A stretch of DNA of 39,059 nucleotides from an uncultured Clostridia bacterium (GTDB lineage Bacteria > Bacillota > Clostridia > Lachnospirales > CALKRZ01). The position numbers and the translations under genes were made by a program. The DNA lies in the NCBI GenBank assembly GCA_937989765.1, contig CALKRZ010000001.1:1-39059 (forward strand), given 5' to 3'. Shown one piece after another: positions 1,520 through 39,021 of this stretch (the first letter of the stretch is position 1; each line of letters opens with the position of its first letter). Under the pieces are notes generated by a model that saw only the letters and a program-made list of their open reading frames with translations, ran no database searches and was not told the origin of the DNA.

Positions 1520-1537
1520 TCTATAATAATCTAAAAT

Positions 1538-1701
1538 CTTTATAAAACATGCGGTGGCGAGGCAACTAGATGTATCTGGAAATAACTGCAGCCAAAGAGC
1601 GCGTCCCACAGTGTCAACGAAACTTCCCCTTTGTACAAGCGCGATTTTGAAGGTATTGGAAGATATATCTAGTTGCCTCGCTACATGATTTTTTTATAAA
1701 G
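1538..1701 (+). mobile_element. Family-1 foldback repeat, copy A (divergent, MITE-like)
   Basis: Lies between the M23 stop codon and its terminator. The 78-nt core (1575-1652) aligns with the cores at 14463-14539, 22686-22762 and 26331-26407 (rc). Arms GCGAGGCAACTAGATGTATCT / AGATATATCTAGTTGCCTCGC pair with each other. Outer ends are CTTTATAAAA / TTTTATAAAG. No clear target duplication. Confidence 0.6.
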
Positions 1702-1708
1702 TTGCACT

Positions 1709-2676: not shown

Positions 2677-2727
2677 GGGTTGGATCTTTGTTTTACTACA
2701 TACTTTTTGGGAGATTCTAAGTTTTTA

Positions 2728-9958: not shown

Positions 9959-10756
9959 ATGGCATTACGATTTTGTACCATCGCCAGTGGTAGTAGTGGT
10001 AATAGTATATATATTGGCACGGCACATGCTCATATACTGGTAGATGCAGGGTTGAGCGGCAAACGTATTCAACAAGGACTCCAAAGTGTGCAATTGACAG
10101 GACAGCAGCTAGACGGGATTTTTATTACGCATGAGCATAGCGATCATATCAGAGGGGCAGGCATCCTGTCTAGACGATTTGATATTCCGATCTATGCTAC
10201 CCCAGGGACATGGTTGGGTATGAAGGACAAACTCGGAGAGATCGCTCCTCACAATCAAAATCATGTAGAAAAAGAACAGGATTGTATCATAAAGGATCTG
10301 TGTATCCATCCATATGAAATTCCGCATGATGCCAATGAGCCGGTAGGATATACTATTTGTACAGACCAACACAAAATATCTATTGCCACAGATTTGGGGC
10401 ATATTACCGAGATAGTAAAGCGTACTATTAAGGATTCAGATATACTGCTGCTAGAGTCCAATCATGATGTGGATATGGTCAAAGTGGGGAGGTACCCATA
10501 TTATCTGAAACAGCGCATCTTGGGATCTATGGGACATCTTTCCAATGAAAGTGCGGGAGAACTTCTGGTAGAACTTATATCGGGTCGTCTTAAGCATGTA
10601 TTCTTGGGTCATCTTAGTGAGGAAAACAACTTTCCAGAATTAGCGTACCAAACTGTCATCAATATCCTAGAGCAAAACCATATTAAAGTAGGTACCCATC
10701 TACAGATGGGCATGGCTCTCCGCCATGAACCTAGTCCAGTAGTAGCACTAGCATAA
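9959..10756 (+). CDS. walJ: MBL-fold metallo-hydrolase, WalJ/YycJ-like
   Basis: 265 aa. SGSSGNSIYI...ILVDAGLS and the HEHSDH metal motif. Located at the end of the wal locus. Confidence 0.85.
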   Translation: MALRFCTIASGSSGNSIYIGTAHAHILVDAGLSGKRIQQGLQSVQLTGQQLDGIFITHEHSDHIRGAGILSRRFDIPIYATPGTWLGMKDKLGEIAPHNQNHVEKEQDCIIKDLCIHPYEIPHDANEPVGYTICTDQHKISIATDLGHITEIVKRTIKDSDILLLESNHDVDMVKVGRYPYYLKQRILGSMGHLSNESAGELLVELISGRLKHVFLGHLSEENNFPELAYQTVINILEQNHIKVGTHLQMGMALRHEPSPVVALA

Positions 10757-10777: not shown

Positions 10778-10839
10778 GAAAGAGAAACATACAAGATCCT
10801 CTATATTTTCATATAGGGGATCTTGTATGTTTCTCTTTC
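10778..10839. terminator. Very long near-perfect hairpin between convergent walJ and the GDPD gene (bidirectional terminator candidate)
   Basis: GAAAGAGAAACATACAAGATCC pairs perfectly with GGATCTTGTATGTTTCTCTTTC (22 bp). The inner pairing CTATAT/ATATAG extends the stem. The apical loop is TTTC. Confidence 0.6.
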
Positions 10840-10852
10840 CTTCATTTTATAC

Positions 10853-11650
10853 CTATTGACTAACCCAATGAGTAGGCTGAAAGTGATCTGTATATATGCC
10901 ATATACACCATATTCTTGTAGTGTTTCATAGGTAGTAAGGCTGTTCACTGTATGAACAAATGTAGGTGTATTGACTTCTAACAAGCGCTTTGGCAAGGGA
11001 GATTGCCCACGATCTATGGGCATAGTAATGGCAAAGAGGGGAGAGGTACGGGCAAAATCTACCACTTCTTGATCTGACACATTCAATCGGTATAAGGTGA
11101 GGATCATATGTTCATACCCTAAGTCAGAGGCTTCCTGATGCTCAGCAAAAGAATAAATCTGGGGGATCAATTGAGGTACCATAGAAGGATGATGTTCTTT
11201 GATCCATTGGAGCATTTTGATATTTTCATTTTTGATATCTGTTACGATGAATGCATCCTTATGGGCAGAAAGCCATTTTTGTAGATCCTGAGTATCTAGT
11301 AGGGTTAGATTTTGAAAAGTCTTTTGCGTCTTAAACTGTGTATGAGTATAGACTGTAGGATGATCCATAAAGAGTCTCTTGACCATAGGGCTCCAATCAT
11401 GAATGAGTACAGGTACTTCGTCCTTTGTCCATTCAAAGTCCAACTCTATAAGGCGAAACCCATTTTGATAGGCTTGGTTCAGGGCTTCTAGAGAATTGGT
11501 ATAAGCAAATCCATAGATAGCCCCCCCGGCATGGGCTACGAGAGGTTGTAGAACTGGTTTTGCGGTAGGGGTACTCGTAGGATAGACGATCATAAACCCA
11601 ATAAAGCATATAATCAATAGCATACAGAGCTGTAGTATTTTCTTTTTCAT
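10853..11650 (-). CDS. Membrane-anchored glycerophosphodiester phosphodiesterase-like (GDPD/PI-PLC fold) protein
   Basis: N-terminal TM. VAHAGG...NSLEAL...FRLIELDFEWTKDEVPVLIHDW resembles the GDPD catalytic His/Glu/Asp/His pattern. Confidence 0.65.
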   Translation of the reverse strand: MKKKILQLCMLLIICFIGFMIVYPTSTPTAKPVLQPLVAHAGGAIYGFAYTNSLEALNQAYQNGFRLIELDFEWTKDEVPVLIHDWSPMVKRLFMDHPTVYTHTQFKTQKTFQNLTLLDTQDLQKWLSAHKDAFIVTDIKNENIKMLQWIKEHHPSMVPQLIPQIYSFAEHQEASDLGYEHMILTLYRLNVSDQEVVDFARTSPLFAITMPIDRGQSPLPKRLLEVNTPTFVHTVNSLTTYETLQEYGVYGIYTDHFQPTHWVSQ

Positions 11651-11748: not shown

Positions 11749-12024
11749 CATAAGCGTAAACTTAAGCCATTACTTGGAAGTTTTCGCTCAAGGAGATATT
11801 TCATTTTCATAGCGTTCTAGTCGCTTGGGTTATAGATGCCCTGAGTGAACACGAATTATCTTTATTGCGAGTAAGCTGATGGATAGCACCATATCGTCCA
11901 CAACGGCTACCGAAGTTCGCTTCGTTCTAGTACATAGCAAGAAGCTCCACGAACTCTATTCAAATTGAAATATCTCCTTTCGCTTAGGCTATCTGCCATA
12001 TTATGGCTTAAGTTTACGCTTATG
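11749..12024. mobile_element. 276-bp foldback element with 22-bp perfect TIR and 10-bp flanking direct repeat (MITE-like; family 2)
   Basis: CATAAGCGTAAACTTAAGCCAT (11749-11770) is the exact reverse complement of 12003-12024. ATACAAGGAT occurs at 11739-11748 and 12025-12034. A subterminal inverted repeat, AAGGAGATATTTCA, is at 11790-11803 / 11966-11979. No credible ORF. Confidence 0.75.
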
Positions 12025-12127: not shown

Positions 12128-14407
12128 ATGAAGCGAGATCATTTTCACACGATATATAGTTGGATTGGGATTTTTAGCATTATAACGATTGTAAAACAAT
12201 ATATAGTTCAAGCACTGCTTGGGATGCCATTTATGGATATTCCGTATTGGTTGATCAATGTAGTGATTGTGATAGGGATATTTACGCTAGCCAGTAGTGT
12301 TCTATCTCTGAAACAGTATCGACAAGGCTTGTTTTGTGTATATATATTTTTGACGATTTTGATGTACGGCGATCTGATTCATTATCGCCATTTTCGGACG
12401 CCCATACCTATCCATTCTATGGGTTCAGCAGGTCAAGTAGCGGCAGTAGGCGGAAGTGTGTGGGTACTTTTATCGTATATTGATATAGTATTGTTTGTGG
12501 ACTTGATCATTTTGGGTATTTACTTATATAGATCCAAGCGTAAGAGCGAAGAGATTTATTACAAAAGAAGGTTGTTTTATGGGATTGCAGGCATAGGCAT
12601 TTTTTGCTTAGTACTCTTGATCAATACAGGGATGATGAAAGAAGGCGTGTATACCGCAGAGCGGCTCGGGATGATCTATTATCATTTTGTAGATATACAG
12701 ATGTGGGTGACAGGCGGAGAAAGTCAAGTAGAGGATTGGGAACCTAAAGATCAAAAAACAAGGCTGCCTGTGGGACAGAGAGCGTATTTTGGAGCTGCCA
12801 AGGGACGAAATTTGATCGTGATCCAAGTGGAATCGATGCAGAATTTTGTGCTGAATCGGGAAATAGAAGGGCAGTCCATTACCCCAGTGATGAATGAGTT
12901 GATCAGTCAAGATACCTTGTACTTTGATAGATATTATCAACAACTCGGCAGAGGCAATACTTCTGATGCAGAATTTGTTACGCACAACAGTCTATACCCT
13001 TCTATGGGTACGTATACGTATAAACAATATGAAGAACATGATTTTTATCCCCTGCCAAGGATGCTACAGGAGCAGGGGTACAGTACGATCGCATTTCATG
13101 GAAATGATCCTGATTTTTGGAATCGAAGAGCTATGTATAAAAAACAGGGATTCGACACGTTTATTAGTGATCAACAAATGGTGAACGATGAAGTGATCGG
13201 GATCGGGATCAGCGATGGATCTGTATTTCGTCAGTCTATACCTTATTTACAAGGATTGTCTCAGCCTTTTTATAGTTTTTATGTCACCTTGACCAGTCAT
13301 ACGCCTTTTATCATGCCCAAAGAACTGCAAGGGCTTTCGTGTAAAGGAGAACTCAAGGGCACTTTTCTAGAAAACTATCTACAATCTATTCATTATTATG
13401 ATCAAGTCCTAGGAGAGTTTTTAGAAAGTCTCAAAAAACAAGGACTGTATGAAAACTCCATCATTGTGATCTATGGGGATCATTTTGGCGTGGATATTCG
13501 CAAGAAAGAAATCAGACAAATGATGAGTGAGTTTTTAGAAAAGCCCTACGACTTTGATGAATTTATGAATGTCGGTCTTTTGATTCATATACCTGGTTTG
13601 GGCAAAGCAGAAACACGTTCAATAGCGGGAGGGCAGATAGATTTTTATCCTACGATGCTGAATCTTTTAGGTGTAGAACAGACGAAGGGTTATCTTTTTG
13701 GGCAAGATTTACTCAATGCATCAAAAGGGTTCGCAGCCAGTCAGACCTATATGATCAAAGGTTCCTTTATCGATGATGAAAAGGTATTCGAGATGTCTAG
13801 GGACGGGAAATATGAAAATAGTCGAGCGTACTATATACACAACGGAGAACAGGTGCCACTAGAAAAATGTCGAGAAGGGTATGAGAGGGCACTGCAGGAC
13901 ATTAATCGATCCAACTATATACTTCATAATAATCTGATGCTCGCAGCACAAGAAAAAAGTCCTACAAACTCCAGCCATTTTAGTGATATACGAAATCAGT
14001 GGGCCGAAGAGATGATCAACACCCTACATGAAGACGGTATCCTCGTACCGACTATGGATGGGCTCTGTAAGCCCGAAGAACCCATCTCTCGTGCAGAGTG
14101 GATCACCATGATGGGTAGGATGTATGATTGGGTCCAACAAGAAGGACAAGAATATCGAGATCTAAATAAAGAATATGCAAAACCCTATATCCGAGTGGCA
14201 CTAGAAAGAGGCATAGTACCCCAAGACATTGATCTTGAAGAACCGATCGTCTATGACGAAGCCTTGCAGTGGCTTATGCAGGTAGAAGCAGTGCGTATAA
14301 ACCGCAAAGACATTCCCACAGATAGAGTTTTATTACGAGGAGAAGCAGTAGAAATCCTCTATATTCAAAAATATAACGATCCCATAGATAGAGGGATGGA
14401 TAGATAG
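12128..14407 (+). CDS. LtaS-family (sulfatase-fold) polyglycerolphosphate transferase with a C-terminal SLH-like region
   Basis: About 5 N-terminal TM segments. Sulfatase-fold core with IQVESMQNF and GRGNTSDAEF (the Thr nucleophile context of LtaS). The C-terminus FSDIRNQWAEEMINTLHEDGILV...ISRAEW matches the SLH pattern, including the (T/S)RAE motif. Confidence 0.8.
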   Translation: MKRDHFHTIYSWIGIFSIITIVKQYIVQALLGMPFMDIPYWLINVVIVIGIFTLASSVLSLKQYRQGLFCVYIFLTILMYGDLIHYRHFRTPIPIHSMGSAGQVAAVGGSVWVLLSYIDIVLFVDLIILGIYLYRSKRKSEEIYYKRRLFYGIAGIGIFCLVLLINTGMMKEGVYTAERLGMIYYHFVDIQMWVTGGESQVEDWEPKDQKTRLPVGQRAYFGAAKGRNLIVIQVESMQNFVLNREIEGQSITPVMNELISQDTLYFDRYYQQLGRGNTSDAEFVTHNSLYPSMGTYTYKQYEEHDFYPLPRMLQEQGYSTIAFHGNDPDFWNRRAMYKKQGFDTFISDQQMVNDEVIGIGISDGSVFRQSIPYLQGLSQPFYSFYVTLTSHTPFIMPKELQGLSCKGELKGTFLENYLQSIHYYDQVLGEFLESLKKQGLYENSIIVIYGDHFGVDIRKKEIRQMMSEFLEKPYDFDEFMNVGLLIHIPGLGKAETRSIAGGQIDFYPTMLNLLGVEQTKGYLFGQDLLNASKGFAASQTYMIKGSFIDDEKVFEMSRDGKYENSRAYYIHNGEQVPLEKCREGYERALQDINRSNYILHNNLMLAAQEKSPTNSSHFSDIRNQWAEEMINTLHEDGILVPTMDGLCKPEEPISRAEWITMMGRMYDWVQQEGQEYRDLNKEYAKPYIRVALERGIVPQDIDLEEPIVYDEALQWLMQVEAVRINRKDIPTDRVLLRGEAVEILYIQKYNDPIDRGMDR

Positions 14408-14441
14408 GTAATGCATCAGTAGGATTCTAAAACAGTAACTA

Positions 14442-14732
14442 GTGGTAAGGCAAATATATTAATCTGGAAATAACTGCAACAAAGGAGCGCGTCCTAGATT
14501 ACAACAAAAATTCCCCCTTGTACAAGCGCGATTTTGCAGTTAGGCAACTGAAAATAAATAACTGGTCAAAGATGCTGAGGATATTTTGTGTCAGACAAGG
14601 AAGCAGGTTCCGTTGCTAGTGGGGCTATCATCGGGTTCTGCTGACGCAGTATGACGCAAAATAGACCAGCAGATTGACTAGTTATTTATTTTCAGTTGCC
14701 TTATTGGAAGATTAATATATTTGCCTTACCAC
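14442..14732 (+). mobile_element. Family-1 foldback repeat, copy B (interrupted by a nested element)
   Basis: Arms GTGGTAAGGCAAATATATTAATCT / AGATTAATATATTTGCCTTACCAC. The core at 14463-14539 is about 85-90 percent identical to copies C and D. Degenerate outer ends may reach ~14422 and ~14750. It lies between the convergent LtaS-SLH and HD-GYP genes. Confidence 0.75.
14543..14700. mobile_element. 158-bp foldback element nested inside copy B (family 3)
   Basis: 25-nt TIR GGCAACTGAAAATAAATAACTGGTC / GACTAGTTATTTATTTTCAGTTGCC (1 mismatch). Flanked by TTA on both sides (14540-14542 and 14701-14703). The interior halves are also mutually complementary. Copies A, C and D lack this insertion at the same point. 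Confidence 0.7.
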
Positions 14733-14752
14733 AGCTCTTTCCTTTGGATAAT

Positions 14753-21604: not shown

Positions 21605-22642
21605 ATGAGACAAAAAGCGATAACAATCAAGGATATAGGTAGAGAGTTAGGCATTTCACCGAGTACTGTATCTAGAGCGCTTAATAATTATGCGGATATC
21701 AATAAAGAAACCCGAGATAAAGTGATGCAAGTGGCTAAAAAGTTAAATTATACCCCGAATGTGATCGCCAGAAGTTTGGTGACTAATTCTACCAATCGCA
21801 TTGGCGTTTTAGTAGAAGACTTTGATATAGAAGGGGTATATAATGCATTTTATTATGAAATCCTTACAGGATTTAAACGGAGCGCTATGGAAAATGGATA
21901 CGAAGTAGTTCTGCTCTCTACTACTTCAGAAGAGCAAAAACAGGTTCCTTTTGAAAGACTTATTATAGAAAAGCAACTTGCAGGTGTTTTTGTCATGGGA
22001 CTTAGGACGGATGATGAATACTTCAAAAAACTCCAAGAGATAGAGTCTCCAGTCGTATTATTTGATATACCCATCAAAAAGCCTAACATGGGGTATATAT
22101 CAGTCAATAATATAGAGGCGGCTAAAATGGCGATGGAGCATTTGATAGGTCTTGGACATAGGAAGATTGCCTATGTCAATGGACATAAATGGGCGTATGT
22201 GAGTGAAGAGCGGCTCAATGGGTATTTGTTATCTCTTATGAAAAATAATATTGCGTATGACCCTAGCTTATGCTTTGAAGGAGACTATACTGAAGAAAGT
22301 GGTGTAAGAGCAGCAGAATATTTAATGGATAAGGGCATGACAGCCATATTTTTTGCCAGTGATATGATGGCAATCGGAGCCATGAAAAGATTGCAGCAAT
22401 TGGGATATGAGATTCCGACAGATCTATCCATCGTAGGATTTGACAATATTAATCTGTCTAGCTACATTACGCCCACATTGACCACGGTCAACCAAGATAA
22501 GTATGAGTTAGGGAGAACAGCGTATGTGATTTTAAGCAATCTAATTGCAAAGCAACCCATCAATCAAGTGATGTTGGATGCAGAATTGATTATCAGGCAT
22601 TCTACTGCAGCACCCTTAACGCCAAAGCAGGGCAAAAAATAA
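21605..22642 (+). CDS. LacI-family transcriptional regulator
   Basis: N-terminal HTH ITIKDIGRELGISPSTVSRALNN followed by a periplasmic-binding-protein-like sugar-binding core. Confidence 0.9.
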   Translation: MRQKAITIKDIGRELGISPSTVSRALNNYADINKETRDKVMQVAKKLNYTPNVIARSLVTNSTNRIGVLVEDFDIEGVYNAFYYEILTGFKRSAMENGYEVVLLSTTSEEQKQVPFERLIIEKQLAGVFVMGLRTDDEYFKKLQEIESPVVLFDIPIKKPNMGYISVNNIEAAKMAMEHLIGLGHRKIAYVNGHKWAYVSEERLNGYLLSLMKNNIAYDPSLCFEGDYTEESGVRAAEYLMDKGMTAIFFASDMMAIGAMKRLQQLGYEIPTDLSIVGFDNINLSSYITPTLTTVNQDKYELGRTAYVILSNLIAKQPINQVMLDAELIIRHSTAAPLTPKQGKK

Positions 22643-22643
22643 T

Positions 22644-22812
22644 GGATCTCAGAAAAAGTATGTGGTGGTAAGGTAAATATATAAATCTGGAAACAACTGC
22701 AACAAAGGAGCACGTCCCAGATTTCAACTAAACTTACCCTTTGCACAAGTGCGATTTTGCAGCTGCTTCTAGATTTATATATTTGCCTTACCACATACTT
22801 TTTCTGAGATCC
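22644..22812 (+). mobile_element. Family-1 foldback repeat, copy C (169 bp, intact)
   Basis: Terminal inverted repeat GGATCTCAGAAAAAGTATGTGG / CCACATACTTTTTCTGAGATCC. Flanked by AAAATAAT at 22636-22643 and 22813-22820. Starts 2 nt after the lacI-family stop codon. Confidence 0.85.
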
Positions 22813-22858
22813 AAAATAATAGAACCTCGAGAGGTTCTATTATTTTTTGCCCTGCTTT
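22813..22858. terminator. Bidirectional terminator hairpin (remnant of a 28-bp palindrome split by copy C)
   Basis: AAAATAATAGAACCTC..GAGGTTCTATTATTTT followed by TTGCCCTGCTTT. The right arm (22839-22858) is the reverse complement of 22624-22643. Confidence 0.65.
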
Positions 22859-23226
22859 AATCCAACGATGAAGATACCTGCCAAATCTACTTTGACTAAC
22901 TTTTTGGTAGGGAGCTTTTCAAATACTTTGTCATCGCAGAGTAGCGTCATGATTTGAGGACCGACTTTTGCTTTGACTAAGGGCATTTTGCGGAATCGGT
23001 ACATTTTGGGGATCTGATCCATGACGGATTTTGGCAAGTTTGCCTTTGTAACCCTTTGCTTTTTCTTGTCAATGACAAGGATGGATGTAGTTACTTTATG
23101 TTGCTGGATTAGGCTTTGTTGATCTGACAATTTTTTTATTAATTTTTTTCGGAGAAAGTAAAATCCGACTCCTAAAAGAGCCAGTACAATTACGATAATA
23201 CTAATGGTTATAAAGATCTGCGGCAC
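22840..23226 (-). CDS. Small N-terminally anchored membrane protein, function unknown
   Basis: GTG start with GGAGG 7 nt upstream. One TM (IFITISIIVIVLALLGVGFYF). Lys-rich soluble part. No motif recognised. Confidence 0.5.
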   Translation of the reverse strand: MPQIFITISIIVIVLALLGVGFYFLRKKLIKKLSDQQSLIQQHKVTTSILVIDKKKQRVTKANLPKSVMDQIPKMYRFRKMPLVKAKVGPQIMTLLCDDKVFEKLPTKKLVKVDLAGIFIVGLKQGKK

Positions 23227-24908: not shown

Positions 24909-25487
24909 ATGGCATTACAACAGGAAAATAAAAAATATACGTATGCGGATTACTTGACATGGCCAGAAAATGAAAGATGGGAGATTATTGATGGAACGCC
25001 TTATATGCAAGCGGCGCCCACATGGCAACATCAGGCAATATCAGTAGAACTAACTTCTCAGTTCAATGCCTTCTTGAAAGGGAACCGCTGTCGTGTGTTT
25101 GCGTCGCCTTTTGATCTAAGGCTTCCTCAAGGGCATCAAAAAGATGAAGATACAACCTTTGTAGTCCAACCCGATCTTGTAGTTGTATGTGAGAAAGAGG
25201 GTTTGAAAGGTACAGGGTATTATGGAACACCTACCCTGATCATTGAGATCACTTCTCCATCTACGGCAAAAAACGATAAGATATGGAAATTCAATAAATA
25301 TGAGAAAGTTGGAGTGCAAGAATACTGGATCGTAGAACCAACAGAAAAAATTATTTCCGTATTTACGCTACAAGAGAATCAGCGATATGGAAGACCAGAA
25401 TCGTATACAGAAACAGATCAAATAAAGGTGACAGGAGTACCAGGGCTCATCATTGATTTAGCACCCGTATTTGCTTCAATAGAGTAA
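24909..25487 (+). CDS. Uma2-family (DUF820) PD-(D/E)xK-like endonuclease
   Basis: YTYADYLTWPENERWEIIDG... and ...PDLVVV...PTLIIEITSPST...K...Y...GVQEYWIV match the Uma2 layout. Confidence 0.75.
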   Translation: MALQQENKKYTYADYLTWPENERWEIIDGTPYMQAAPTWQHQAISVELTSQFNAFLKGNRCRVFASPFDLRLPQGHQKDEDTTFVVQPDLVVVCEKEGLKGTGYYGTPTLIIEITSPSTAKNDKIWKFNKYEKVGVQEYWIVEPTEKIISVFTLQENQRYGRPESYTETDQIKVTGVPGLIIDLAPVFASIE

Positions 25488-26247: not shown

Positions 26248-26280
26248 ACGCTCACCTACTTTTAGTCATCAATTATTTTC

Positions 26281-26449
26281 GGATCTCAGAAAAAGTATGT
26301 GGTAAGGAAAATATATAAATCTTCCAACAACTGCAAAATCGCGCTTGTGCAAAGGATAAATGTAGTTGTAATTTGGGACGCGCTCCTTTGTTGCAGTTGT
26401 TTCCAGATTTATATATTTGCCTTACCACCGCATACTTTTTCTGAGATCC
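26281..26449 (-). mobile_element. Family-1 foldback repeat, copy D (169 bp, intact, inverted relative to copy C)
   Basis: 154/169 identical to the reverse complement of copy C by ungapped hand alignment. Flanked by TTATTTTC at 26273-26280 and 26450-26457. The right duplication contains the malQ stop codon. Confidence 0.85.
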
Positions 26450-28039
26450 TTATTTTCGGCCGTATACTGTGGATAGAGCCGCAAGACGCGTAGCATACTC
26501 TGGGCAAAGCTGATCTTTGGTGTATCTCCACTGCCAATTACCACTAGCGACTCCAGGCGTATTCATTCTTGATTCAGAGTCTAGACCCATCACATCTTGC
26601 ATAGGAACAATCGCTATATCAGATACAGAGGCAAATGCCAAGCGGATAAAATCCCACCATATTTCTTCTCCAGAAGTATTCATATACTGCTTGCAATATG
26701 CTTGATCTGCTTCAGAAGCTTTCTCATACCAACCTACAGTCGTGTCATTATCATGGGTACCTGTGTATACGACGGTGTTGGGGATGAAATTATGGGGAAT
26801 ATAGTTATTTTCTTCAGAAGAGTCAAATGCAAATTGAAGTATTTTCATGCCAGGGAAGTCAAATGCATCACGGAGTTCGATGACGCCTTCTGTAATGAGG
26901 CCTAGATCTTCTGCGATGATCGGTAATTTGCCTAAAGCTGTTTCGATGGCAATGAATAAGTCTTTGTCAGGTCCTTTTTCCCATACCCCTTGGATGGCAG
27001 TTTCTTCTCCAAAAGGAATAGACCAGTATGCTTCAAAGCCTCTAAAGTGGTCGATTCGAACGATATCTACTAATTCTAAAATACCTTTGATTCGTTCTAC
27101 CCACCAAGCATAGTTCGTATTTTTGTGGATTTCCCAATTATAGAGAGGATTTCCCCAAAGTTGTCCTGTAGCACTAAAATAATCAGGTGGAACACCAGCC
27201 ACTACGGTAGGATATCCTTTCTCATCTAGATAAAAAAGACCTGGATTTCCCCATACATCTGCACTATCATAGGCTACAAAGATAGGAATATCTCCAATCA
27301 CCTGAATGTTTTTGTCATTAGCATAGGTTTTAAGTGCACGCCATTCGGTATAAAACTCAAATTGAAGGAATTTATAGTATTCGATATCATCCGCAAGACG
27401 AGCAGTCCATTCTTTAATCGCTTCAGGGCGTCTTAAGGCAATGCCTTCTTCCCAAGTACTCCAAACAGCACCGAAATAATAATCCTTTACAGATTTCTCA
27501 TTTAAATACTTTTGATTGGCGGCGGCAAAATCTTCAAAGGCTTCATCCATGCCAGAAGCAGTTCTGACCCGAATATAATAATCTTTTAAGGAGACAAATA
27601 GAGTGTAATCATTTAACCAAATTTTATTTACTTCACAAAATTCTTCAAATTTTGCTTTTTGGGCAGCCGTGCCTGTCTTCTTGAAATTTTGGTATGCTTT
27701 TCTAAAAAGTTGGGATTTATAATTAATCACGGGGCCGTAATCTAACTTTGTATCATCAAAAGCGGGAACTTCAGCCACGTCACTTTCATCTAATAACCCA
27801 TCCACAATCAGCTTATCAGGGCTTATTAATAAAGGATTTCCTGCAAAAGCAGAAAAGCACTGATAAGGTGAATCACCAAAACTAGTAGGACCAAGTGGTA
27901 AGACTTGCCAAAGTTTTTGTTTACCTTTGCTTAAAAAATCAATAAACTCAAAAGCATCTTTTCCTAAATCTCCAATACCAAAGCGACTGGGAAATGAAGT
28001 AGGATGTACCAAAATACCGCTGGATCTTTCAAAAGCCAT
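26450..28039 (-). CDS. malQ: 4-alpha-glucanotransferase (amylomaltase, GH77)
   Basis: 529 aa. SGILVHPTSFPS..GIGDLG, SPYQCFSAFAGNPLLIS, VRIDHFRGF and THDNDT are GH77 signatures. Confidence 0.9.
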   Translation of the reverse strand: MAFERSSGILVHPTSFPSRFGIGDLGKDAFEFIDFLSKGKQKLWQVLPLGPTSFGDSPYQCFSAFAGNPLLISPDKLIVDGLLDESDVAEVPAFDDTKLDYGPVINYKSQLFRKAYQNFKKTGTAAQKAKFEEFCEVNKIWLNDYTLFVSLKDYYIRVRTASGMDEAFEDFAAANQKYLNEKSVKDYYFGAVWSTWEEGIALRRPEAIKEWTARLADDIEYYKFLQFEFYTEWRALKTYANDKNIQVIGDIPIFVAYDSADVWGNPGLFYLDEKGYPTVVAGVPPDYFSATGQLWGNPLYNWEIHKNTNYAWWVERIKGILELVDIVRIDHFRGFEAYWSIPFGEETAIQGVWEKGPDKDLFIAIETALGKLPIIAEDLGLITEGVIELRDAFDFPGMKILQFAFDSSEENNYIPHNFIPNTVVYTGTHDNDTTVGWYEKASEADQAYCKQYMNTSGEEIWWDFIRLAFASVSDIAIVPMQDVMGLDSESRMNTPGVASGNWQWRYTKDQLCPEYATRLAALSTVYGRK

Positions 28040-28416: not shown

Positions 28417-29010
28417 ATGAAGACATTTGGAAAAATTATAATTGCAGGAAGTATAATGGCCACGCTTTTATTACCTGGTTGTGCTGCCTATGACAATCAA
28501 GCAGGAAATCGTGGTGCAGGTATGGAAAACCGCGTAGGAATGGGTGCAGGTGGTGCAGGTGGAATAGGTGGCGCAGGAACTGGAATGGGCGCAGGTGGAA
28601 TAGGTGGAATAGGCGGTGCAGGTGGAACTGGAATGGGCGCAGCTGGAAGAGGTGGCGCAGGAGTAGAGAATAGAATGGCTACGAATGTAAGAGATCCTTT
28701 TATTACAGATAACAGACTGAACAATGCACCACTTGGAGGTCGTACTGGTCAAGTAGGTGAAGCGGATACAGCAAGAAGAATTACCACTCAAGGAGTAATT
28801 CCAGGAACAGGCGTAGGAATGGCTCCAGCAACAACTCGAGGAACTACAATGGATCGTACAGCGATGACAGGCACACCGAATTATATGATCAATGATTATG
28901 CGCTTGGAAATCGAATTGGTGTAACAGGTCAAGATGCAATGCGTAATGGAACAGTAGCGAGAACACCCATGCCTGAAACAACAAGAAAAACAGCAGCAGG
29001 AACAAGATAA
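28417..29010 (+). CDS. Low-complexity Gly/Met/Ala/Thr/Arg-rich lipoprotein, function unknown
   Basis: AAGGAGG RBS. Signal peptide with lipobox LLPGC. GAGG(I/T)GG and GMG repeats. No globular region evident. Terminator follows. Confidence 0.6.
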   Translation: MKTFGKIIIAGSIMATLLLPGCAAYDNQAGNRGAGMENRVGMGAGGAGGIGGAGTGMGAGGIGGIGGAGGTGMGAAGRGGAGVENRMATNVRDPFITDNRLNNAPLGGRTGQVGEADTARRITTQGVIPGTGVGMAPATTRGTTMDRTAMTGTPNYMINDYALGNRIGVTGQDAMRNGTVARTPMPETTRKTAAGTR

Positions 29011-38955: not shown

Positions 38956-39021
38956 TCTTTTTGTGAAATCTACATAGTAATAAGGTAAATATCTTAATAA
39001 ATACTAATTTTTATAAAAAAA

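Follow-up and report, generated by a model that had tools for sequence, protein, structure and literature searches.

Directly past the stop codon of a LacI-family gene, in the DNA of an uncultured Clostridia bacterium, lies a 169-bp foldback sequence that recurs at the ends of other genes nearby, which raises the question of whether such repeats are mobile elements, transcription terminators or carriers of an RNA signal. We analysed the whole 39,059-nucleotide stretch in which it stands (the window), which is a complete contig of a metagenome-assembled genome, and searched for further copies outside it. These repeats form a real family of small non-coding mobile elements that had not been catalogued before and that lands at gene ends in an uncultured Clostridia genome, and its members are very probably non-autonomous DNA transposons (MITEs) of that lineage.

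All four copies that a preliminary description had placed in the window (A to D) were recovered, with A spanning about 1533-1702 and B about 14421-14752 in our analysis. They are flanked by genes for an M23 peptidase (A), a sulfatase-fold protein with an SLH domain (B), a LacI-family regulator (C) and the 4-alpha-glucanotransferase MalQ (D). The full form is 169 bp long, with perfect terminal inverted repeats of 23-24 bp that start GGATCTCAG; inside these are about 40 bp of imperfect inverted repeat per side, and a non-palindromic centre of about 55 bp. Copies C and D are both 169 bp long and identical at 154/169 positions without gaps, exactly as described before, and the terminal repeat attributed to both is found as GGATCTCAGAAAAAGTATG, which has exactly four occurrences in the window, at all four ends of C and D (0.02 expected). 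The core 19-mer TTGYACAAGYGCGATTTTG occurs once each in A, B, C and D (0 expected in the window), in agreement with the earlier view that A and B share the non-palindromic core of C and D and that the element is polar. Either strand is predicted to fold as a single long hairpin (-80 and -86 kcal/mol, z-scores -13.5 and -14.8). The features of the two intact window copies are as follows.

22644..22812, + strand: copy C, the complete 169-bp element, in which the terminal inverted repeats are perfect over 24 bp and the core is asymmetric
22636..22643, + strand: left duplication of C, AAAATAAT, holding the TAA stop (22640-22642) of the LacI-family gene
22813..22820, + strand: right duplication of C, AAAATAAT, 8-bp target-site duplication
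22624..22858, unstranded: native bidirectional terminator hairpin split by C, between convergent genes 21605-22642(+) and 22840-23226(-)
26281..26449, - strand: copy D, the complete 169-bp element (154/169 positions as in C), bordered by the stop of malQ and the start of the acyltransferase gene
26450..26457, - strand: upstream duplication of D, GAAAATAA as read on the - strand, holding the malQ TAA stop
26273..26280, - strand: downstream duplication of D, GAAAATAA, 8-bp target-site duplication

The site of copy C records the insertion itself. A repeat finder reported a 23-nt inverted repeat straddling the element, and when C and one AAAATAAT are removed in silico the flanks AAAGCAGGGCAAAAAATAATAGAACCTC and GAGGTTCTATTATTTTTTGCCCTGCTTT join into a perfect 27-bp stem (-41.7 kcal/mol), the terminator that the convergent genes 21605-22642 and 22840-23226 have in common. 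Since excision restores a perfect terminator stem, C is a genuine insertion into the left arm of a native terminator, with 8 bp duplicated. For D, the original malQ-acyltransferase spacer was about 26 nt long, and the nearest relative (contig L001) has this spacer without the element, though the spacer is otherwise diverged and the MalQ of this relative is only 70% identical to that of the window. Judged by the names of the best matches, the relatives are Defluviitaleaceae and Epulopiscium-like Clostridia. The 8-bp duplications differ from copy to copy, being AAAATAAT in C, GAAAATAA in D and, in two copies outside the window described below, AAAAAAGG in E and AGACAAGA/AGATAAGA in F; they are perfect in C, D and E, and match at 7/8 positions in F. 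The claim that C and D each carry a perfect 8-bp direct repeat of their own and inserted independently is thus borne out, whereas the proposed AAAATAA target holds only in being A/purine-rich, since the other duplications read AAAAAAGG and AGAYAAGA. A composite transposon, with C and D as inverted ends around 3.5 kb, was also considered and rejected, because each copy is flanked by its own matching duplications and the inner gene order is as in the relative L001.

The remaining window copies are more diverged, and one of them is itself interrupted.

1533..1702, + strand: copy A, divergent subfamily member, between the M23-peptidase stop (1517-1519) and the terminator hairpin of that gene (~1708-1735)
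14421..14752, + strand: copy B, starting 14 nt past the sulfatase/SLH stop codon (14405-14407), with a native terminator hairpin immediately behind it
14543..14700, unstranded: nested, unrelated 158-bp foldback in the right arm of B; its terminal repeats GGCAACTGAAAATAAATAACTGGTCAA measure 27 bp, and TTA is duplicated on either side (14540-14542 / 14701-14703)
2681..2717, + strand: probable degenerate remnant of right-arm type, GGATCT...ACTACATACTTTTTGGGAGATTC, 4 nt past the TGA stop of gene 1819-2676; weak, and absent from the nhmmer results

B owes its extra length to the separate 158-bp foldback that interrupts it, which is present as a single copy among the DNA examined. The weak sub-threshold Rfam match of this nested element to IS009 (16 bits, threshold 117) is noise. 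Compared with C, D and E, copies A and B are 63-93% identical in the inner arms and 78-87% in the core, and 39-53% in the outer 19 bp; in B the inner arms are about 90% identical and the outer ends degenerate. No flanking duplication is visible for A or B. The arms of A depart from the C/D/E sequence in the same way on both sides and are still 78% complementary, for which membership in a different subfamily would be the simplest explanation. These older copies are members of diverged subfamilies, or else their ends have decayed, and they have probably lost their mobility. In the right arm, A, B and D carry TTGGAAG, a direct copy of the left-arm TGGAAA, where C and E have the complementary TTCYAG. 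Such a small inversion, which improves the palindrome, would be a signature of hairpin-templated mutation at the DNA level. Another candidate left arm from the repeat finder, at 38966-38998, was discarded, as the similarity does not extend and nhmmer reports nothing there.

We sought new copies by searching the six-frame translation of the element against gene calls, the only route that yielded any. Two gene calls, P0121 and P0122, have spurious N-terminal extensions of about 50 residues translated from the element, and the contig that carries P0121 holds two copies.

L002 4487-6850: P0121, ABC-transporter gene call with its start inside an element copy
ENA contig L002 4469-4637: copy E, full, 162/169 identical to C, with perfect terminal repeats; its duplication AAAAAAGG overlaps the TAA that ends the ABC-transporter gene upstream
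L002 6857-6924: copy F, 68 bp, arms without the core, ends GATCTCTGAAAAAGTA; its duplication AGACAAGA/AGATAAGA (7/8) overlaps the TAG stop of the following gene

The 68-bp copy F inserted in the same way as the full copies, and the core is therefore not needed for insertion. P0122 is MnmG preceded by an antisense translation of the element, and its copy ends about 23 nt before the mnmG start codon. Seven loci were retrieved from relatives, and in each of them mnmG is preceded by a co-directional mnmE at a distance of 12-18 nt, so that this copy is almost certainly just past the mnmE stop, in antisense. The first three bases beyond the element are fixed by Leu-Asn codons as T-N-A, which could be the mnmE stop codon, fitting the overlap with stops seen in other copies. 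A further over-long MnmG call, P0123, was rejected as a carrier of the element, its extra length coming from internal duplicated segments. This protein (L021 369-2540, GCA_029782595.1) has 723 aa, with two internal segments duplicated verbatim (EIFRFKTGTPARIAG... and SGYEEAAAQGLIAG...), which looks like an assembly artefact rather than biology. Altogether we count seven copies at unrelated loci, five in the window (A to D and the remnant) and two on L002 (E and F), with an eighth deduced from P0122.

Searches by DNA sequence found no further members. Rfam gave no match at the gathering threshold over the whole window, and with E-values up to 10 allowed, C, B and L002 yielded nothing but noise far below threshold. 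The core pattern GAGCRCGTCC..ACAAGYGCGATTTT has no match in GTDB representatives (185,579 species), JGI metagenomes or IMG/VR. The exact terminal-repeat 19-mer occurs in these three collections at 3, 12 and 3 places, respectively, which are single, lie in unrelated coding sequence and do not extend into the element; none of these loci holds an element copy according to nhmmer. With the 169-mer as query, distant-mode BLASTN gave no match in plasmids or phages, there is no copy in about 108 kb from the nearest relatives, and a literature search with 15-mers of the element found no paper carrying its sequence. The preliminary description had recognised no named repeat or RNA family here, and the Rfam and literature results agree with it. 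The search for copies that it had proposed, by BLASTN and nhmmer, has its answer in three additions (E, F and the P0122 copy), with none from pattern scans of public genomes and metagenomes.

Several properties of the family argue for MITEs. The terminal repeats are perfect over 23-24 bp in C, D and E, and identity among these three copies is 100% in the outer 19 bp, 82-97% in the inner arms and 87-94% in the core. A profile with invariant ends (100%) and a core at 87-94% is typical of a recently active MITE. It does not fit the conserved core that had been reported, as the core of the young copies is no better kept than their arms and less so than their terminal repeats. Coding capacity is absent, with stops in most frames and no frame that has both a start codon and a ribosome-binding site. 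A role for the core as a Shine-Dalgarno sequence or part of a small ORF was dismissed: AAAGGAG does occur there, but it has no conserved start codon behind it, and no frame is kept across copies. The element thus combines a small non-coding size, terminal inverted repeats, duplications of fixed length and differing sequence, and an empty site, which together characterise a MITE. As noted earlier, the window holds no transposase, and a Pfam search found no transposase domain in any of its ORFs. A parent autonomous element with matching ends was not found in the window, on L002, or in GTDB representatives, JGI metagenomes, IMG/VR, plasmids and phages. The points that count against a MITE are this missing parent, the lack of visible duplications in A and B, the position of the copies just past stop codons and their largely sense orientation (both below), and the outer ends, which are usually the part read by a transposase and are here the least conserved between subfamilies (39-53% for A and B against C/D/E).

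The position of the copies suggests a refinement of the MITE reading, in which the transposase would actively recognise DNA at or just past stop codons, be it A/purine tracts by terminator stems or ribosome-binding sites, or a transcription-linked state; we put this forward tentatively, as something that falls short of probable. For position statistics we used the copies free of ascertainment bias (A, B, C, D, the remnant at 2681-2717 and F). All six lie 0-22 nt past a stop codon, and the four clear duplications (C, D, E and F) all overlap one. Under a uniform-intergenic model of the window with the elements removed, 13% of non-coding positions are this near a stop and 5% near enough for the duplication to overlap it, which gives naive probabilities of about 1e-5 to 1e-6 for the observed proximity. 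No copy lies in the large divergent promoter regions that make up most of the non-coding DNA of the window. A-rich 8-mers resembling the duplications are plentiful away from stops (675 non-coding windows); since only about 3% of them are at stops, A-richness alone cannot explain the position at gene ends. Active targeting is weakened by the varying register of the stop codon within the duplications, which indicates that the stop itself is not read, and by the small number of known sites, seven. Moreover, selection against promoter disruption would act in the same way, as has been argued for pneumococcal repeats (PMC3049150). Purging of harmful insertions must contribute to the observed position, and the gene-end bias would combine it with a target preference, in shares that seven sites do not separate. 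Regarding orientation, the five full copies with visible DNA (A to E) are sense to the gene whose stop each follows, and the P0122 copy is antisense to mnmG, so that the sense orientation earlier proposed as a rule, which is correct for the four window copies and for E, is a 5:1 tendency and not absolute. For six orientable copies this ratio has a two-sided binomial p of about 0.2, and with such small numbers selection on orientation is compatible with 5/6 in sense.

Two further readings give the inserted element a function in transcripts. The preliminary description saw in each copy a strong bidirectional intrinsic terminator, and a mobile terminator or attenuator resembling the pneumococcal SPRITE would stop transcription both ways by its long hairpin and internal U5, with copies persisting where they are harmless or useful. 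In the predicted fold of each strand, GUAUG...CAUAC closes a very stable hairpin that is followed directly by UUUUUC and preceded by an A-run; A, B and C are at true gene ends, beside or inside native terminators, and SPRITE is distributed likewise. The T-run described at the ends of the outer arms is indeed present on both strands, but its five bases sit inside the outer stem, paired in the full-length fold, and not after the hairpin. Native terminators stand just downstream of A and B, which thus add nothing as terminators. The main difficulty is with D, E and F, which occupy what were spacers of 20-30 nt before insertion, between co-directional and probably co-transcribed genes (malQ and the acyltransferase gene; two ABC-transporter genes; an ABC-transporter and an alanine-racemase gene), and the spacer between mnmE and mnmG very probably holds the P0122 copy. 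Strong termination at these places would silence the downstream gene, and is hard to reconcile with them. An outward promoter in the element was rejected as well: the single 9/12 consensus match, in the right arm, is at background frequency (29 found, 30 expected), and it is absent in A and disrupted in B. A simple terminator scanner does not call the element, owing to the loop and stem limits of the scanner. We therefore regard the mobile terminator as unlikely, as the predicted folds and gene contexts make a strong bidirectional terminator unlikely too, whereas a putative role as partial attenuator or RNase target is possible.

The other functional reading takes the MITE as a mere vehicle for a domesticated 3'-UTR or intercistronic RNA module, in which the asymmetric core, carried by a long stem, would work as a 3'-UTR-derived small RNA, as a platform for proteins or as a site of processing, with the sense orientation selected. 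In its favour, the non-palindromic core recurs in each of the five full copies, the diverged A and B among them, with the blocks GAGCGCGTCC and CCYTTGYACAAGCGCGATTTTG nearly invariant; these copies, all sense to the upstream gene, lie inside transcription units; and a GGAA/UGGA internal loop of the sense strand, which would read UUCC on the opposite one, is kept in A, B and D. The core helix is where covariation had been expected. RNAalifold on the five copies gives the long stem and one 4-bp core helix, GCGC:GCGC, and the difference of C from the other window copies in this helix (GCAC/GTGC for GCGC/GCGC), described before as a compensatory change, is real. Its significance, on the other hand, is not upheld, as the core helix and an alternative CAAAGG:CCUUUG helix together have one compensatory pair in 10 pairs, a result reached by 98/500 shuffles with five sequences, and the covariation check thus went against an RNA role. 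Deamination (C to T) at a GCGC site can have two outcomes, GCAC and GTGC, and C shows one of each; two independent events of this kind would look compensatory half the time. The many compensatory pairs that RNAalifold finds in the arms of the five copies are uninformative on RNA, because they are expected for any inverted-repeat DNA element. Arm mismatches comprise 7 G:T, which wobble in the sense RNA, and 6 A:C, which wobble only in the antisense RNA, a balance that favours the RNA fold of neither strand. The ordinary conservation of the core among the young copies C, D and E, the insertion of the core-less 68-bp derivative, the antisense P0122 copy, the lack of an Rfam match and the absence of copies from about 108 kb of the nearest relatives and, by core pattern, from 185,579 GTDB species speak against the module as well. 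The core as a functional, gene-oriented RNA is not supported by these data, and we consider the RNA module quite improbable. More improbable still is a combination of the last reading with active targeting, namely a mobile gene-end module directed just past stop codons, the sense-strand core of which would serve as an RNA signal (processing site, protein-binding platform or small-RNA source); if true, a transposon would be spreading a post-transcriptional control element across operons. The earlier idea of a MITE retained as a 3'-UTR module accordingly stands in its first half, a MITE-like family, and is weak in its second, a terminator or RNA function.

The lineage-specific MITE family that we prefer would spread as follows. 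A transposase encoded elsewhere, presumably of DDE type, would cut the target with an 8-bp stagger and insert the element, and repair would then produce the 8-bp duplication. Targets are A/purine-rich 8-mers that overlap or closely follow stop codons. Once inserted, the element would be carried passively in the tail of a transcription unit or in an operon spacer, where its RNA would fold into a hairpin of about -80 kcal/mol. The family also has short core-less derivatives. We observed directly how the element is built, that its copies inserted independently, that they carry duplications and that excision restores an empty site; the type of transposase and the co-transcription of the element with its neighbours we infer.

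The window contains other foldbacks. At 11749-12024, a third one of 276 bp has terminal repeats CATAAGCGTAAACTTAAGCCAT and perfect 10-bp direct repeats ATACAAGGAT on both sides, and is located upstream of the sulfatase/SLH gene, where divergent promoters lie. Three different MITE-like families are thus present on this 39-kb contig, and the two further unrelated foldbacks with duplications within the same 39 kb indicate a genome prone to MITEs. The convergent genes 9959-10756(+) and 10853-11650(-) are separated by a 29-bp hairpin at 10778-10839 (97% complementary, 4-nt loop), which is probably a native bidirectional terminator, long-stemmed like the one that C has split. Elsewhere in the window, 28537-28670 consists of degenerate tandem repeats of GGTGCAGGTGGAATAGGT-like units in the ORF 28417-29010 (a glycine-rich protein with no Pfam match), and a Uma2-family gene (putative restriction endonuclease) at 24909-25487 stands between the cardiolipin-synthase and acyltransferase genes, where the syntenic L001 contig has no gene.

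The 169-bp family is worth annotating in this lineage, and masking where needed, as it breaks assemblies and yields false N-terminal extensions (P0121 and P0122, about 50 residues each). It is also a clean natural case of a transposon entering a terminator stem and very short operon spacers. If the position at gene ends were confirmed genome-wide and due to targeting, the family would be a useful case of a transposase finding safe sites in a compact genome; if targeting were not borne out, it would be an ordinary lineage-specific MITE.

The element resembles BOX, RUP, SPRITE, Correia and ERIC in behaviour and is unrelated to them in sequence. REP/BIME sequences, in contrast, were excluded as relatives: these are palindromes of 20-40 nt, often clustered, without target duplications and associated with RAYT, whereas the element has 169 bp with terminal repeats and 8-bp duplications and occurs singly. 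The window has no Y1-transposase domain. MITEs of the IS6/IS26, ISL3, IS256 and IS1595 groups are alike in the 8-bp duplication and in ends that start with GG. Of these, IS6/IS26, which has clostridial members, has the end consensus GGTTCTGTTGCAAA, to which the ends of the element correspond in the GG start and in TCT at positions 4-6. However, the seventh base is G in all but one IS6/IS26 member and C in the element, and positions 8-14 differ too, so that an origin from IS6/IS26 was rejected although GG and the 8-bp duplication fit. Correia and ERIC elements duplicate TA, not 8 bp, and RUP is thought to use IS630-type TA targets.

For the Correia elements of Neisseria and ERIC/IRU of enterobacteria and Yersinia, orientation-dependent effects on mRNA cleavage and stability have been reported (background of PMC3049150). 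They share with the element the form of MITE-like foldbacks of 100-170 bp with terminal inverted repeats and an asymmetric centre, and those two are transcribed within mRNAs; their sequences are unrelated and their hosts belong to a different phylum. Closest in setting are the pneumococcal BOX, RUP and SPRITE, small non-coding hairpin-forming repeats that show enrichment behind coding sequences and where genes converge, and that are co-transcribed with neighbouring genes; SPRITE, which is terminator-like, is found near gene 3' ends, BOX copies often overlap the stop codon, and purging of harmful insertions has been proposed for their gene-end bias (Croucher et al. 2011, PMC3049150). The element is likewise a small hairpin repeat at gene 3' ends in a Firmicute, with an unrelated sequence. 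It differs from RUP in making 8-bp duplications, from SPRITE, which has no matching insertion-sequence ends, in its clean terminal repeats of 23-24 bp, and from the pneumococcal repeats in being present inside operon spacers as well.
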